Assembly (NCBI GenBank): GCA_048940645.1
Contig: JBHLOI010000079.1
Span: forward strand, 1-13,252
Direction of reading: 5' to 3'
Source of the DNA: Promethearchaeota archaeon
GTDB lineage: Archaea > Asgardarchaeota > Lokiarchaeia > Sigyniarchaeales > SOKP01
Length of the DNA: 13,252 nt
The notes below the pieces were generated by a model, which was given only the letters and a program-made list of their open reading frames with translations, was not told the DNA's origin and searched no databases. Shown in pieces: positions 2,068-13,029 of the stretch. Within the stretch, counting starts at the first letter, position 1. Each line of letters opens with the position of its first letter. Position numbers and translations under genes: made by a program.

Positions 2068-3561
2068 ATGACGGATGAACTAAAAGAAGAAGATAAGGAA
2101 AGTAAATCGGAAAGTAAAGTAGAAAAAGATGATGATAGAGTAGATAAGGAATTTTTGAGCAAAGCAAAAGATTCAAGAGACTTAATAGATAAAAAGTTAA
2201 GGAGTTTTGAAAATAGCATTGAAGATATTTCTGATACCATTAAAAATGGTGAAACTGAAGAGGAACCAAGGAAAAAAGAAGAAACTCAGATAGAAGAATT
2301 AAGTGAAGAAATTAAAAGTCAACAAGAAAACCTCGAGCAAATTAAGAAAAAGATTGATGATAAAGAAGATTATCTTACTGCTATTGAAGAAACAATAAGA
2401 GCATTAGAGGAACGATACAATCGGAAAAATGAAGAAATGCAAAACCTAGACGAGAGAATACAGATTACCACCGAGAGTAAAGAAACATTAGAAGAGGAAT
2501 ATAAGGAACTAATAAAGAACAATGAGCAATTAATCAAAACCTATGAAGCTAGGCAGGTAGATTTAATAGTACTAACTGATAGTGTAAAAGAAAAAGTCAC
2601 AACACAGGACGATTTAAGATCAAAAATAGCAAAAATTAATCAAGAATTTCAAGAGAAAGAACAACTCTTAGAGAAGCAGAGAGAAGAAGCAGAAGCTTTA
2701 GATAAGAAAATAAAAAGCCTAACAGCAGAAAATGAGACTTTAAAAGTATCAATTGGAAAAAATAGGTTTGAATTAGACCATACAAATAAAGAAATAGAAG
2801 CTAAAGAGGAAGAAAAAAAATTACTATCAGAACAATTAGAGAAAAAAGAACAGAGAATAAAAGTCATAGAGCAACACATTGAAGATTATAAAGAGGGATT
2901 TCCTGAGATGGAAAAACAAAGACAAACATATGAAGAACTTTTAGCAAAATATAAAGTTCAATTAACTGAAAAACAACAACAATTAATTGATGTTGAATCA
3001 AGGATTCAAGGTTTGAACGACAATCTAGAGTCTTTTGATGAACAGATTTCTAAAAAAGAAACTTTAATTGAAGCTAATGAGAAAAGAATAGATGATTTGA
3101 AAAAAGATATTGATATTACCAATAAGGAGTATATTGAAAGAGAGGAGCGGTTAAATTCTCTTACAGAAAAATTAGAATATATGCAAACTGAACATGATAA
3201 ACTTGTTAAAGCAAAAGAAGTTATTGAAAACAGCACAAACGAATCTAAAGCATTACTACAAAAATTAAAAATAGAGTTAGAGAATCAGGAAGAAGAAATA
3301 AGAGATAAGGAAAGCAGGATTCATAGATTAGAGACTTTATCATTCATCTATAGACTTTCAAAATTCTTTGGTGGGATATTAATCGGAGTAGGGGTGTTCT
3401 TTATTATTCTTGTGATAGGTGATATGTTTAATTTTATCAATTTTGGAGATGTTCAGATTATTAATTTTGGGGATTTCAGTTTGGGGGTTCTAGGTTTATT
3501 ATTATTAATAAGCGCTATATTTTCAATTATTTCTGGGATATTTCACCTTGAGAAATCTTAA
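2068..3561 (+). CDS. Long coiled-coil protein with C-terminal two-TM hairpin anchor (497 aa)
   Basis: Acidic N-terminus of ~70 aa, then ~350 aa of E/K/Q/L/I-rich heptad-like sequence almost free of Pro/Gly, then two hydrophobic helices (FFGGILIGVGVFFIILVIG; LGVLGLLLLISAIFSIISGIF). No Walker A/B motif. Confidence 0.85.
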   Translation: MTDELKEEDKESKSESKVEKDDDRVDKEFLSKAKDSRDLIDKKLRSFENSIEDISDTIKNGETEEEPRKKEETQIEELSEEIKSQQENLEQIKKKIDDKEDYLTAIEETIRALEERYNRKNEEMQNLDERIQITTESKETLEEEYKELIKNNEQLIKTYEARQVDLIVLTDSVKEKVTTQDDLRSKIAKINQEFQEKEQLLEKQREEAEALDKKIKSLTAENETLKVSIGKNRFELDHTNKEIEAKEEEKKLLSEQLEKKEQRIKVIEQHIEDYKEGFPEMEKQRQTYEELLAKYKVQLTEKQQQLIDVESRIQGLNDNLESFDEQISKKETLIEANEKRIDDLKKDIDITNKEYIEREERLNSLTEKLEYMQTEHDKLVKAKEVIENSTNESKALLQKLKIELENQEEEIRDKESRIHRLETLSFIYRLSKFFGGILIGVGVFFIILVIGDMFNFINFGDVQIINFGDFSLGVLGLLLLISAIFSIISGIFHLEKS

Positions 3562-5540: not shown

Positions 5541-6272
5541 ATGGACTTTCCTAGGCTAAATTTGCATATTCATTCAAAATATTCAGATGGAAGAAATAAT
5601 ATAAAACAAATCGTAAGAAAATCAGTAGAATATGAATTGAATTATATAGCTATAACGGATCATTTCACAAATTCTTGGAAAGCAAGTATTATACCCAATT
5701 TAAACTCAAAAGAAAAAATTAATAAATATATTTCAGAAATTAACCAATGTCAGAACTATTTAAAAAGGGAAAATCTTAAGTTAAAGGTATTTAAGGGAAT
5801 AGAAATCGATATTAGTAGTTCAGAAAGTTATATTTTAAATTTGTTAAATCCTTATGATTTTGATATAATCCTTTTCGAATATATCGAGAGCCCTGAAGGT
5901 ATCGCATACGTAAAGAATATCATTAAATCCTGGAAAAAAAAATCTACTGCAAAAAATTTCCCAATCTTAGGATTAGCACATTTAGATCCAGCATTTTTTA
6001 TTTATAGTTATTTTGACATCTTAATAACATTCTTAAAAGATTATGATATTTATTTCGAATTTAATTCCAGTTATTCACAGTATTATGCATGTAAATTCCA
6101 AGACTTCTTCTTAAAATTAAAAGAGAGTACCATTTTAGTGGCTATAGGATGCGATTCTCATAATTTGTTAGATTTAATGAATATTGAGGAACCATTTAAT
6201 ATGATAAGAAATTATAAACTTGAAGATAATTTATCAATGTTGATTAAACTTCTTGAATCGAGGGATTTTTAA
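5541..6272 (+). CDS. PHP-domain phosphoesterase (YcdX/HisJ/PolX-PHP-like)
   Basis: PHP motifs NLHIHSKYSDG, IAITDHF, GIEID, AHLD, FEFN and GCDSH. Confidence 0.9.
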   Translation: MDFPRLNLHIHSKYSDGRNNIKQIVRKSVEYELNYIAITDHFTNSWKASIIPNLNSKEKINKYISEINQCQNYLKRENLKLKVFKGIEIDISSSESYILNLLNPYDFDIILFEYIESPEGIAYVKNIIKSWKKKSTAKNFPILGLAHLDPAFFIYSYFDILITFLKDYDIYFEFNSSYSQYYACKFQDFFLKLKESTILVAIGCDSHNLLDLMNIEEPFNMIRNYKLEDNLSMLIKLLESRDF

Positions 6273-6283
6273 TAAAAAGGTAA

Positions 6284-6628
6284 TTAGATTCGTAATTTAT
6301 TTATGTATTCCATATAATATTTGAAAGCTCTTTCAAATGAAATATCCAACAGTATTTCACTTTGTTCTTTAGGTTCATTTAACATTTTTTTCAATTCTCT
6401 TTTTCCAATATTGAAAATCTCTTTAGCAGCGATGATCTTTTTACTCATTGGCATATTATCTATTTCAGTAATTGTTTTATTATATTTCTTCTGCCATTCG
6501 CTTAGTGCCTGCCAAATTATACCTCTCATAGCTGGAATAGATACATTGATAAGTTCACATAAACGTTTAGCAATATTTCGAATCAATTTTAATTGGACAG
6601 GATTAAAATTTACTTTAATATATTCCAT
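6284..6628 (-). CDS. Hypothetical small basic, probably helical protein (114 aa)
   Basis: ATG start and K/E/I/L-rich composition typical of real genes here. Converges on the PHP gene with an 11-bp gap. No recognisable motif. Confidence 0.7.
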   Translation of the reverse strand: MEYIKVNFNPVQLKLIRNIAKRLCELINVSIPAMRGIIWQALSEWQKKYNKTITEIDNMPMSKKIIAAKEIFNIGKRELKKMLNEPKEQSEILLDISFERAFKYYMEYINKLRI

Positions 6629-6912: not shown

Positions 6913-7668
6913 ATGAGCCTTGAAGAGAAAATTAATCTAGCAGCAAAATGGATAATTGATTCAGAAAGATTAGTTGTGTTTACCGGAGCAGGAATATCTA
7001 CTGATTCAGGTTTACCAGATTATCGTGGACCAGACGGAGTATGGACAAGACGGGATAAGGGACTGCCTCCGCCTAAAACACCACCATGGGATCAGGTGAA
7101 ACCGAATCCTCACCATTATGCAATTGTAGAGTTAATGAAAATGGGAAAATTAAATTATCTGATTTCCCAAAATATAGATGGGCTACATGCTAAATCAGGT
7201 ATCCCTTTTGATAAATTAGCAGAGCTTCACGGCAATATGTATTTTATGAAATGTTTATCGTGTAATAAGAAGATGACATTTGAAGAAGCAGGATGGGATA
7301 AAGCAAAATGGGGACCAGGATACAGAACCAATCAAGTTCGAAAAGACCAACCTGATTGTCCTTATTGCGGGAGTAGAATCATTTCAAGTATCGTTAATTT
7401 TGGCGATCCGTTGCCATACGATGAGTTAGAAGAATCAATTAACCGATCTAAAGCTGCAGATGTATTTTTTGTAATTGGTTCATCTTTAGTAGTAACACCG
7501 GCAGCTAACATGCCAGGTATAGCCAAGCGAAATGGAGCAAAATTAATTATCTTAAATAAGGGGGAAACTCCTTATGATTATGCGGCAGATTTAAGATTTG
7601 ATGATTATATCGAAGAGATACTTCCTCTTATTTTAGAAAGAGTTAAGGAAATGCTAAATGGAAATTAG
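6913..7668 (+). CDS. NAD+-dependent protein deacylase (Sir2 family, Zn-binding), with SIRT6/7-like N-terminal half
   Basis: [23 protein letters not shown], catalytic ELHG, Zn ligands CLSC...CPYC, [17 protein letters not shown] and NKGETPYD. Confidence 0.95.
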   Translation: [251 protein letters not shown]

Positions 7669-7702: not shown

Positions 7703-9352
7703 TTATTTTATTTTACCATATAAAACTTTGTTTCTATTATACTCTTTTAGAACTCTTTTTCCTTCTTTGTTTGATAATGATAAGGAAATATCGGCATTTC
7801 TACTTAGTGAACCAGTAAAAATCTGTTGATTATCAGCATAAACAATAATATTACTACTAGCATATTCTGGATCAGCTTTTAGAATTATTTTTTGGCTTTG
7901 GACTTCTACATCTAGTTGAATTTTTCCTTTACTTGATTTTTTCTCTTTATAGAAGCTATTAAGTTTTTTATATCTTTCCGATCTTATTGGTTTAATTGGA
8001 TTCACGACAATATCTTGTCCAAAGGAATACATTTCATATTCTAACTGTCTTGTTTTATAATCTCTTACTTCCACTACAGGTCTAGCAAGATCTTTATCTC
8101 TAAAGCCATGGGGAACTTTTACTGTCATCTTTATAGTTAAGACTCTTGAAATATCTCCATCTTCAATAAAAATGATGGTATCTATTATTGAGGGGAGCAT
8201 ACCAAGTTCAATTCTACCGATAAATCTCTGAATTGCGTCAATTGCTGAAGATGAATGGACTACGCCCACCATACCTACTCCAGATAATCGAAAATCTGCA
8301 TAGACTTGAAAATCTTTTGTTGTTCTCACTTCATCAAATATTGTAAAATCAGGACGCACCAATAGTAGGATGTCTGCTGAATTTTCAAGACTTCCTTCAA
8401 GCTTAGTATATTGTGTGATTTCAGGTTTGACTTGTAAGTCTCTCACACTTTCTAGTGTTTTCACAACCTTATTTTGGTGTAAATAGTAATTTGCTAATGC
8501 AGCTGAAAAAGTGCTCTTACCAGCTCCAGGTGATCCAGCGACTAGAATTCCCTCTGCTTTTTCCAGACGATTGCGGAGTCTTGAGTCGATGGAGTAATCT
8601 GATAATGTTAAATTAACGAGTGGGCGCACTGCAGTTATTTCAACATCATTAGAAAAAGGAGGGCGCGTAATTACTATTCTAAATTCTCGCAATTGGGCTA
8701 CAACAGCACCAAACTTTTCAATTTCAACGAAGGAATGAGCATCTTCCCGTACAAATTCTATAATTTCTATTGCTATTTCTTCTAATTGATTTTTAGTTAT
8801 TATATCATCTCTTACTTTTTCTAAATACCAATTACCTGGGCTTCCTTTTTTCGCATAAGGAGGCAATCCTTGTTTTAAATGGATACTCATTGTATTTTCA
8901 TCAAAAAATTGGATTAATTTGAGTGAAACTGAAGTAACTTCTGTTGGTGCTACTTTTTCCTTTACAGACATCACTTTGATTCCTTCAAAAATACCTACAT
9001 CTCCTTGAATTCTATCTGCTGTAATTAATACAGCCTCGTTTTCATGAGCACTTTCTCTAATTAACGCATCTAATTCTCCTCCAGGAGCCATTTTGATTTC
9101 TTCTCTAGTAGGTCTTTTCCCAATTATATGTAACTTTATTTTATTTTCTTCATGATACTGTCTAAGTCTTTTAAGAACATTTAAACCCAAAAACCCAATT
9201 TCTTTTTGGATATTTGTTCTGTATTCTACTTCAGCAACAACTACACTGGAAATAAAAATCTCTGGGTATTCGCCCAATTCTCCATCTTCAATCAAATCTA
9301 AAATAAGACCGTTAAAAATAACCGATGTATCACATGCGAATTTATCTGGCAT
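7703..9352 (-). CDS. PINA-family PIN-domain P-loop ATPase (PINc/VapC + PilT-like ATPase; archaeal Holliday-junction branch-migration ATPase family)
   Basis: N-terminal PIN (CDTSV, VVAEVE, GELDALIR, LITAD), Walker A AGSPGAGKST (~8511-8540), LLLVRPDFTIFDEVR (Walker B), GVGMVGVVH, DAIQRFIGRIELG and DLARPVVEV. The second ATG (9352, MPDKFACDTS) is preferred over 9370 because it follows GAGGAGG and sits just before the PIN domain. Confidence 0.92.
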   Translation of the reverse strand: MPDKFACDTSVIFNGLILDLIEDGELGEYPEIFISSVVVAEVEYRTNIQKEIGFLGLNVLKRLRQYHEENKIKLHIIGKRPTREEIKMAPGGELDALIRESAHENEAVLITADRIQGDVGIFEGIKVMSVKEKVAPTEVTSVSLKLIQFFDENTMSIHLKQGLPPYAKKGSPGNWYLEKVRDDIITKNQLEEIAIEIIEFVREDAHSFVEIEKFGAVVAQLREFRIVITRPPFSNDVEITAVRPLVNLTLSDYSIDSRLRNRLEKAEGILVAGSPGAGKSTFSAALANYYLHQNKVVKTLESVRDLQVKPEITQYTKLEGSLENSADILLLVRPDFTIFDEVRTTKDFQVYADFRLSGVGMVGVVHSSSAIDAIQRFIGRIELGMLPSIIDTIIFIEDGDISRVLTIKMTVKVPHGFRDKDLARPVVEVRDYKTRQLEYEMYSFGQDIVVNPIKPIRSERYKKLNSFYKEKKSSKGKIQLDVEVQSQKIILKADPEYASSNIIVYADNQQIFTGSLSRNADISLSLSNKEGKRVLKEYNRNKVLYGKIK

Positions 9353-9959
9353 TTTCCTCCTCTTCAGCATCTAATTTGCTAATTATTTCAAATTTATTAA
9401 CACTATAATAAATTGGTTTGGATAATCTATCAACTGTAGCAACAATTAAATCCTTTCGAGAGCTCATTGCCACTCGGGACATTTTATCTAAATCTTTTAA
9501 TTCAATTGGGGCTCCTTCAAAAATCGGGTAAATTAAATATTTAGCAGCATTTTTCTCAAAATCTACCCCTCTCTTATATACACGAAAATCAAGACCATCA
9601 CCGTATCCAGCTCGTACAACATAGCCCCTTTTACGTAAATCCATATAAATTATATATTTTTGCCATAATCTTGGATCATACCTAGTGAAAAACGTTAATA
9701 GATTTTCAAAATCATATATTTCATTACTTTTATCATTATCTTTCCATATTAAAATCCTATTTCTTTCACATAAGAGAAGAACTTCTATTGGTTCCAAAAT
9801 AAGCTTCTGTTCTCCATTATCATTCTCTTCTAAGGTGCCAATATAGGAATTGCTGTAAAATTCTTCAATAGCTTTTTTATCATAAATAAAGACTTTATCT
9901 TCCTCGAGAACTGCTTCGAACTGACTTTTCTCTACCTTTTCATCAGCTTTTTCTGTCAT
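9342..9959 (-). CDS. endA: tRNA-intron endonuclease (EndA/Sen) family subunit, probably the non-catalytic structural subunit
   Basis: LILEPIEVLLL (N-domain), YMDLRKRGYVVRAG, DFRVYKRG, RVAMSSRKDLIVATVD and IYY. The catalytic His position is Ala, and the protein has no His at all. Confidence 0.88.
   Translation of the reverse strand: MTEKADEKVEKSQFEAVLEEDKVFIYDKKAIEEFYSNSYIGTLEENDNGEQKLILEPIEVLLLCERNRILIWKDNDKSNEIYDFENLLTFFTRYDPRLWQKYIIYMDLRKRGYVVRAGYGDGLDFRVYKRGVDFEKNAAKYLIYPIFEGAPIELKDLDKMSRVAMSSRKDLIVATVDRLSKPIYYSVNKFEIISKLDAEEEENAR
9356..9362 (-). promoter_or_regulatory. Shine-Dalgarno-like GAGGAGG inside the endA 3' end, 3 nt upstream of the PINA ATG
   Basis: Minus strand reads ...GAAGAGGAGGAAAATGCCA. 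It also encodes EEE of EndA, so it could be coincidental, and the spacing is short. Confidence 0.35.
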
Positions 9960-11814: not shown

Positions 11815-13029
11815 ATGGTTACTGTACCGATTTGGGATCCCTCAGAACGATTTTTTTGGGGAATTGCAATAGCAATAGCACTAATGTGTGGAATATATTT
11901 TATATATAAAGCGAGAAAGAGGGAAGTTTTTAATGAGAAATTCATTATGTTTGGGTTAGCAAGTCTCCCTCTTGGTTTTGCAATAAGTTTGATATTTACT
12001 TATTTTCAAGTTTTTCAAGTTCAAGGAACCTTTATTAACCATGTATTTTATGGAGATTATGATAACATTACGCCACTTTATGAACTTCTTGGTAGATTAA
12101 GTTATATTTCCCTTGGAATTGGTGCTTTGTTCTTTGTATTGGCTTTTGACATAATCGTAAAGCACACGAGATATCTTCTAACAATTATTTACGCGATTTT
12201 AATTGTAATAGAAATTATACTACCCTTAGAAACTCCATTTTTAACAATAGGTAGATATGTATTTAATTTTCCTATAATACTTGGATTATTAATCATAGTT
12301 CCCCTAGTATTATTTCTTTATACAAAATGGTCACATCTTGATTTTAAAGCCGTTTCTTCGTTTTTATTATTCGGCTTCCTATTATTTGTGATTTCATTAA
12401 ATCTGGCTAAGAAAGTTCATAAAAATCTCGATGTTTACCCTTTAATATTAAGTCCTCTTCTATTGATTTTAGGCTGTTGTATCACTATACTCCCAACAAT
12501 TATTAATCCCAAAATTATATCCCGAGCTTTAACTTACTGGATCTTATTTGCAATTTTAACTATTCCTTTACTCATCATTATGCTTTATATTAATACTATC
12601 AATAAATTACCGTTTCAATTTATCATTGAATTTCTTGTTGCATTTATATATATATACATAATATTTTTCCTCATAGTAAAGAATATAAGGGCCGAAATAA
12701 TCTTAGAGAATCGAGATACGGGAAATGAAATAGAATCTCAGGTTTTAGGAATATTCACCAGACCTCAAAAAGTTACTGAGGAAGAGGTAATATTTCACAG
12801 GGAGCGAAAAATTTGTTTAGTCTGTAAGGGAAAATTATTAAGATCAATATATCTTTGTCCACAATGCGATGCGCTCTATTGTATAAAATGTTCAGATGCA
12901 TTAAGGACCATGGAAAATGTGTGCTGGTCATGCTATACGCCAATTGATCCGACTCAACCTATAAAATTCAAAGAAAAGGAAGAAGAAAAAGATATTGAAA
13001 TTTCTAAAAACATATCAAAAAAATTGTAA
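11815..13029 (+). CDS. Multi-pass (~9 TM) membrane protein with C-terminal C4C4 RING-like zinc finger
   Basis: Nine hydrophobic helices in aa ~13-290, then FTRPQKVTEEEV and CLVC-x10-CPQC-x4-CIKC-x10-CWSC (12814-12933), then a charged tail. Confidence 0.85.
   Translation: MVTVPIWDPSERFFWGIAIAIALMCGIYFIYKARKREVFNEKFIMFGLASLPLGFAISLIFTYFQVFQVQGTFINHVFYGDYDNITPLYELLGRLSYISLGIGALFFVLAFDIIVKHTRYLLTIIYAILIVIEIILPLETPFLTIGRYVFNFPIILGLLIIVPLVLFLYTKWSHLDFKAVSSFLLFGFLLFVISLNLAKKVHKNLDVYPLILSPLLLILGCCITILPTIINPKIISRALTYWILFAILTIPLLIIMLYINTINKLPFQFIIEFLVAFIYIYIIFFLIVKNIRAEIILENRDTGNEIESQVLGIFTRPQKVTEEEVIFHRERKICLVCKGKLLRSIYLCPQCDALYCIKCSDALRTMENVCWSCYTPIDPTQPIKFKEKEEEKDIEISKNISKKL

Follow-up and report, generated by a model that had tools for sequence, protein, structure and literature searches.

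SIRT6 and SIRT7 are the chromatin-bound sirtuins of human cells and have long been considered eukaryote-only. A reading of the 13,252-nucleotide stretch of DNA analysed here (the window), made from the letters alone, had proposed that one of its genes codes for a prokaryotic sirtuin with the class IV architecture of these enzymes. This raises the question of whether the likeness is inherited, where such a protein belongs relative to class IV and what it may do. A prokaryotic short form makes the origin of class IV testable, and a tail-less relative of about 250 residues could serve as a minimal model, in which the effects of helix-bundle loss on acyl selectivity and NAD binding can be studied apart from nucleosome anchoring. 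The closest homologues (77-92%) mostly bear the label Promethearchaeota, and their names turn the suspected Asgard host into a Promethearchaeia (Loki) archaeon.

The open reading frame is free of internal stops, and every motif that had been quoted for it is present (Table 1). The protein scores 120 bits against PF02146; the Pfam SIR2 match is split into two stretches because the helical segment of the profile is absent from the window sirtuin. All residues expected of the family are intact, namely the catalytic histidine, the NAD-binding motifs and the four zinc cysteines, and the zinc module holds a 31-aa insert of the Asgard type, W..WG.GYRT....QP.C. The serine of the SQNIDG motif is common to class IV, and a threonine takes its place in 100% of the long forms.

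Table 1. Position of the sirtuin gene and its sequence features in the window.
Feature	Position	Strand	Details or basis
Intact sirtuin gene, Asgard SIR2b / prokaryotic class IV-type putative NAD-dependent lysine deacylase	6913..7668	+	251 aa, PF02146, AlphaFold2
GAGIST NAD-binding loop, aa 25-30	6985..7002	+	sequence; invariant across alignments
17-aa linker in place of helical module, aa 46-62	7048..7098	+	alignment + model
SQNIDG motif, aa 85-90	7165..7182	+	alignment
ELHGN with predicted catalytic His106 (= SIRT6 H133, LoSIR2b H114)	7222..7236	+	alignment
Zinc module C114-x2-C117-x31-C149-x2-C152	7252..7368	+	alignment
NFGDPLP substrate-binding strand, aa 162-168	7396..7416	+	alignment
GSS + NKGET NAD-binding motifs, aa 189-191 and 215-219	7477..7569	+	alignment

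The feature that sets this protein apart is its linker. Between GVWT, which starts at 7036, and KPN, which ends at 7107, there are exactly 17 residues, as had been counted; the helical module of the other classes, put at 35-40 aa, comes to 33-35 by the same measure. In a joint alignment, the W-to-P distance of the window protein is 19 residues. It ranges from 18 to 21 in eukaryotic class IV (44 proteins) and from 35 to 44, with a median of 36, in the long-form sirtuins of prokaryotes (51 proteins), and the net loss therefore amounts to about 17 residues. The linker folds into one short helix followed by a Pro-rich loop in an AlphaFold2 model (pLDDT 94.7), and its residues P53 and W59 correspond to SIRT6 P80 and F86. 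The protein thus lacks the helix bundle between the two domains, an absence described as a class IV feature (PMC10942634), as well as the helical module after GxW by which class U and class III are recognised. Further residues common to class IV lie outside the linker (S85, S95, G50, the H178/S179 type), and the KP motif is lost. A spacing of 18 between Q and ELHG was discarded as a class IV marker, as it is also found in many long bacterial forms.

The C-terminal half had been thought to keep prokaryotic motifs. This holds only for NKGET, which stands where eukaryotic proteins have NLQ.T, but NFG[DE]xLP and GSSLxVxPA are not restricted to prokaryotes. Residues F163, G164 and L167 are conserved in 79%, 65% and 90% of the 44 eukaryotic class IV proteins, respectively, and both NFGDPLP and GSSLVVTPA of the window protein fit the non-animal class IV consensus. 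Most of the motifs that look prokaryotic in this half thus represent the ancestral condition of class IV, and the WEDSL sequence is a derived form of animal and plant SIRT6.

Among solved structures, human SIRT6 is the best phmmer match (174 bits, E 3.5e-50), ahead of Sir2Af2 (156 bits, 7e-45), Sir2Tm (141 bits, 5e-40) and SIRT7 (108 bits, 3e-30). Residues 3 to approximately 135 align with human SIRT6 without a gap, which bears out the claimed resemblance over some 130 residues; the description of a near residue-for-residue match goes too far, since the identity to animal SIRT6 over the whole core is 36-39%. The superposition on SIRT6 that had been suggested as a check yields the best fold match (Z 29.9, rmsd 2.1 Å over 238 residues), followed by Sir2Af2 (Z 27.6, 4.1 Å). 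As the alignment used for folding included SIRT6 relatives, the model may be biased towards SIRT6 and this match is not fully independent. In searches of proteins clustered at 50%, about 105 of the 150 best representatives are short-linker proteins carrying the eukaryotic NLQ motif, and those of them that were looked up are of the SIRT6/SRT1 type. No curated prokaryotic NCBIfam model reaches its cut-off (NF040867, 210 versus 320; NF001753, 206 versus 243).

With human SIRT6 (class IVa; PDB 3PKI, 3K35, 3ZG6), the window sirtuin shares the absence of the helix bundle, the gapless N-terminal half and most acyl-channel residues, but it lacks the N- and C-terminal tails of SIRT6, has FGDPL in place of WEDSL and NKGET in place of NLQPT. 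Also missing is the loop between C166 and C177 of vertebrate SIRT6, in which K170, R172, R175 and R178 anchor the enzyme on the nucleosome acidic patch (PMC10942634). Lacking both WEDSL and the 10-residue C3-C4 loop that carries the acidic-patch arginines in vertebrates, it falls outside class IVa. The class U enzymes Sir2Af2 and Sir2Tm and the CobB-type archaeal sirtuins resemble it in size, in being a stand-alone domain and in their CxxC...CxxC zinc site, with 40-44% identity; they differ by a helical module that is about 17 residues longer, by their TQN, LHxxAG and KP motifs and by an rmsd to the model of 3.2-4.8 Å, compared to approximately 2.1 Å for SIRT6.

We determined how far the short form extends. 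Scores are distributed bimodally across 250 other Asgard genomes, about 87 of which (~35%; E <= 1e-49) contain the high-scoring form, and the short linker was checked directly at about 35 Asgard loci. The short form is present in 45 of the 54 genomes of the host's family and is also carried by Freyarchaeum and Heimdallarchaeum; the searches did not detect it in 59 genomes from the largest other Asgard family or in a complete 4.4-Mb Loki genome with tailed histones (G213). In the Dehalococcoidia, 11 verified and four probable cases were found among 251 genomes (4-6%), and in the Desulfobacterota eight among 251 (~3%), the seed genome being counted in both. The Actinomycetota contributed one of 201 genomes, a Rubrobacter, one other archaeal phylum likewise one of 201, and the Thermoprotei-containing phylum none of 301. 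Three bacterial short forms occur among the best 80 of at least 599 sirtuin loci, plasmids gave no close match (best 38%) and an atlas search yielded no more than a hint of bacterial relatives. From the genome counts, we therefore conclude that the short form is common in Asgard archaea and sparse elsewhere. An Asgard-exclusive distribution is ruled out by the bacterial copies. The sequence-only reading had set its proposal against a form widespread in bacteria and devoid of special Asgard-eukaryote affinity: bacteria do possess the short form and the Asgard affinity is weakly placed, but the sparse counts speak against a widespread bacterial occurrence. The zinc insert measures 12 aa in bacterial copies, 31 aa in Asgard copies and a median of 24 aa in eukaryotes.

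Several unusual copies were noticed during this survey. The Rubrobacter-type actinobacterial copy (L215:1108-1899, - strand) has an Asgard-type zinc insert, unlike other bacterial copies, and likely represents a separate transfer. Long and short sirtuin forms lie in tandem in a Dehalococcoidia genome (L164:557-2187), as do two high-scoring copies in some Loki genomes (G240:C190 and G210:C9). At another Loki locus (L219:2758-6227), two sirtuins are inserted among ribosomal protein genes, and one product of this locus (P0121, 408 aa) combines a leading 160-aa domain that has no Pfam match with a short-linker sirtuin. Two bacterial-type short-linker sirtuins (P0128, P0129) follow an N-terminal region of 250-290 aa that also has no Pfam match. 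In the protein P0124 from a Logan contig, the N-terminal half groups with class IV-type sirtuins and the C-terminal half with long bacterial forms, and its long linker is unrelated; it is possibly a recombinant or a true intermediate.

In the phylogenetic trees, eukaryotic class I and II sirtuins were left out, and eukaryotic class IV was represented by SIRT6, plant SRT1, SIRT7 and fungal and protist forms. With the linker and zinc-insert columns removed, the prokaryotic short forms and all eukaryotic class IV proteins form one clade (100/98). Within it, the eukaryotic proteins are a monophyletic group of their own (100/100), and the window protein lies outside this group. The same short-form clade is recovered with the N-terminal half (100/100) and with the C-terminal half (SH-aLRT 97), so that a chimera of a class IV N-terminal half and a class U C-terminal half was rejected. 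In line with this position, the window protein lacks the marks of the eukaryotic crown: the NLQ.T motif, the glutamate before the first zinc cysteine and GR.C are all absent. The window sirtuin is a stem relative of class IV and not a crown member. The earlier designation as an intermediate or ancestral SIRT6/7-type enzyme is hence supported in part, but not in the sense of a half-and-half intermediate, as both halves group with class IV.

An affinity of Asgard sirtuins to class IV has been described before. Grau-Bové et al. (2022) found a well-supported sister relation of SIRT7 and Loki/Heimdall sirtuins and considered an archaeal origin or an ancient transfer in either direction to fit their tree (10.1101/2021.11.30.470311). 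Their tree likewise has Asgard sirtuins as the prokaryotic sequences nearest to a class IV family, and their Asgard clade is very probably the clade of the window sirtuin. The placements differ: theirs is beside SIRT7 alone, ours outside all of class IV with the bacterial members included, and a SIRT7-only link was rejected here (p-AU 2.8e-5, with one fish SIRT7 in the set).

That a class U or class III sirtuin lost its helical module independently of SIRT6/7 might be suspected from the best NCBIfam scores, which belong to archaeal CobB/PRK00481 models although all are below cut-off, and from the 46% identity to some long-form bacterial sirtuins, which exceeds the identity to animal SIRT6. Such convergence is very unlikely, since the deletion equals that of class IV in length and position, shared residues occur outside the deletion, the clade is recovered without the linker columns and by both halves, and the AU test speaks against an independent deletion, which it rejects (p-AU 0.007). 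A position inside class III/U, which had been named beforehand as evidence against the proposal, was accordingly not found, and the likeness to class IV in architecture is genuine and due to homology. A gene acquired from a eukaryote would agree with the direction-neutral transfer considered in the 2022 paper (10.1101/2021.11.30.470311). However, the prokaryotic sequences lie outside a monophyletic eukaryotic class IV, the gene order is kept across the host's family (PHP - sirtuin - PINA - endA) and the GC3 of 0.25 resembles the 0.19-0.23 of the neighbouring genes; we regard both transfer from eukaryotes and contamination as extremely improbable.

Descent of class IV from an ancestor shared with the window sirtuin leaves the question of the donor. 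Several placements of the eukaryotic sister group are compatible with the three trees computed, rooted or unrooted, and with three AU tests. In one scenario, class IV passed vertically from the Asgard host to eukaryotes, bacteria acquired their copies by later transfer, and the enzyme already served as a chromatin eraser in the host. This is in agreement with the short form in about 87 of 250 Asgard genomes from several classes (Loki, Freyarchaeum, Heimdallarchaeum), compared to 3-6% or less of bacterial genomes, with a rooted tree in which the basal branches of the clade are a paraphyletic set of Asgard forms, with the Asgard-type insert of the Rubrobacter copy, with the published Asgard link (10.1101/2021.11.30.470311) and with AU tests that reject eukaryotes neither with all Asgard forms (p-AU 0.096) nor with the Heimdall/Freyr subclade (p-AU 0.43). 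It has to contend with the best tree, in which eukaryotic class IV is sister to the bacterial short-form clade (57/85; an outgroup-free tree agrees, with weak support), with the absence from the 59 genomes of one large family and from G213, and with the bacterial nature of the nearest sampled long-form relatives, which are class U-like and come from Dehalococcoidia and Desulfobacterota. We consider it plausible, although short of probable. The same bacterial outgroup and sister group, together with a single clade of all prokaryotic forms that is not rejected (p-AU 0.22) and with the lack of a histone-fold match in five bacterial carriers, would fit an origin in Dehalococcoidia/Desulfobacterota and separate transfers to Asgard archaea and to the eukaryotic stem, the enzyme being a general deacylase and originally independent of chromatin. 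Here it is the weakness of the 57/85 support, the sparseness of the bacterial copies and their shrunken, derived-looking zinc insert that argue against, and we can offer this route only tentatively. The special affinity between Asgard and eukaryotic sequences that had been anticipated is not borne out, given the bacterial short forms and a best tree that favours a bacterial sister. An Asgard origin of SIRT6/7 is thus possible. The wider proposal that all eukaryotic class IV sirtuins descend vertically from Asgard SIR2b, and that histone tails or long acyl groups were already preferred before eukaryotes arose, by an enzyme of SIRT6-type architecture, is in our view less likely than not. Whichever prokaryote was the donor, the short-form lineage very likely arose once, when a class U-like ancestor lost about 17 residues; among the long-form sirtuins sampled, the nearest relatives of this ancestor are bacterial. 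The lineage would then have expanded across the Asgard archaea, entered anaerobic bacteria in a patchy manner, and led to all eukaryotic class IV sirtuins.

A July 2026 preprint reports assays of three sirtuins of Ca. Lokiarchaeum ossiferum (bioRxiv 10.64898/2026.07.02.735847). In these assays, LoSIR2b performs NAD-dependent deacetylation of Loki histone-tail and yeast H4 peptides, LoSIR2a and LoSIR2c are barely active on histone-tail peptides, and Loki and Hod SIR2 chimeras rescue silencing in yeast (10.64898/2026.07.02.735847). The preprint does not use the term class IV and draws no ancestral inference, and long-chain deacylation is not among the assays considered here (10.64898/2026.07.02.735847). 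The L. ossiferum B35 genome codes for three sirtuins, of which UYP45352.1 alone has a short linker and is 59% identical to the window protein; the other two are 33% and 36% identical. The residues stated for LoSIR2b, Q94 and E112-G115, occur at these numbers in UYP45352.1 only, and N106/H123 of LoSIR2a fit another B35 sirtuin. Because the preprint gives QNID at positions 94-97 and the B35 record has QNVD, UYP45352.1 was equated with LoSIR2b by residue numbering. Besides its linker, LoSIR2b shares the Asgard-type zinc insert and the clade with the window sirtuin, and differs in belonging to a host of another Loki family and in its gene neighbourhood.

We therefore consider it very likely that the window sirtuin is a soluble NAD+-dependent protein-lysine deacylase of the prokaryotic class IV branch, an orthologue of LoSIR2b and a member of the single-deletion lineage ancestral to eukaryotic class IV. 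Based on the chemistry of the family and the intact residues, an acyl-lysine would enter the cleft between the Rossmann and zinc domains and attack NAD+, upon which nicotinamide would leave; His106 could then act as the base, resulting in free lysine and O-acyl-ADP-ribose. In the model, loss of the helical module would open a SIRT6-like acyl channel, and long-chain acyl substrates are therefore plausible. The SIRT6 channel residues P62, F64, V70, W71, P80, F86, V115, M136 and I185 (PMC8389836) map, in this order, to P35, Y37, V43, W44, P53, W59, I88, M109 and I160. Nine of 11 checked positions are matched or conservative; SIRT6 F82 and M157 are unmatched and the N-terminal lid is absent, which makes a long-chain preference uncertain. 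An action on archaeal chromatin proteins, as had been envisaged, gains ground by analogy: since the orthologue deacetylates histone-tail peptides in vitro, the substrates of the window sirtuin likely include lysine-rich histone tails. The Loki paralogue that is efficient on histone tails is also the SIRT6-like one, a link that the preprint does not draw and that would suggest a pre-eukaryotic preference if class IV descends vertically from Asgard SIR2b. The window sirtuin is probably not histone-specific, because no histone-fold match was found in five bacterial carriers of the short form and a Loki genome with tailed histones lacks it.

As the Asgard link is published and the activity of an orthologue has been assayed, the value of the window sirtuin is limited and it adds a member to a known clade. 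Small additions made here are the rejection of a SIRT7-only link and the connection of LoSIR2b to class IV, which is absent from the preprint; in reviews, archaeal sirtuins continue to appear under class III or U.

The host genome (3.8 Mb, 30% GC; assembly 90% complete) contains one other full-length sirtuin match, a long protein of the CobB/class U type on contig C60. Four untailed histones and Alba are encoded in the assembly, and a tailed histone was not found in these 90%. A congener of the host has one short-tailed histone, and the sequence beside its gene corresponds to the outermost start of contig C47; the tailed-histone gene of the host therefore probably lies in an assembly gap.

The neighbours of the sirtuin gene code for a PHP protein, PINA, a tRNA endonuclease and a hydrogenase maturation protease. 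The order PHP - sirtuin - PINA - endA is conserved only within the host's family and the sirtuin gene converges on PINA, and the neighbourhood hence provides no functional clue. A promoter scan of the sirtuin gene remained at chance level. The PHP-domain protein (5541-6272, +) is kept upstream of the sirtuin in the host's family, and a 114-aa open reading frame without a family match (6284-6628, -) is kept between the two in relatives, with 40-89% identity. On the other side, the endA-like tRNA splicing endonuclease overlaps the start of the PIN-domain PINA-type ATPase, and this pair (7703-9959, -) adjoins the sirtuin in related Loki genomes too. Further away, the window contains a calcineurin-like phosphoesterase that continues past the contig end (3-1652, -), a long coiled-coil protein of 497 aa that has two membrane segments in its C-terminal part and only sub-threshold, crescentin/ATG16-like matches (2068-3561, +), and a 404-aa multi-pass membrane protein with a Cys-rich, zinc-ribbon-like C-terminal tail and no Pfam or NCBIfam match (11815-13029, +).
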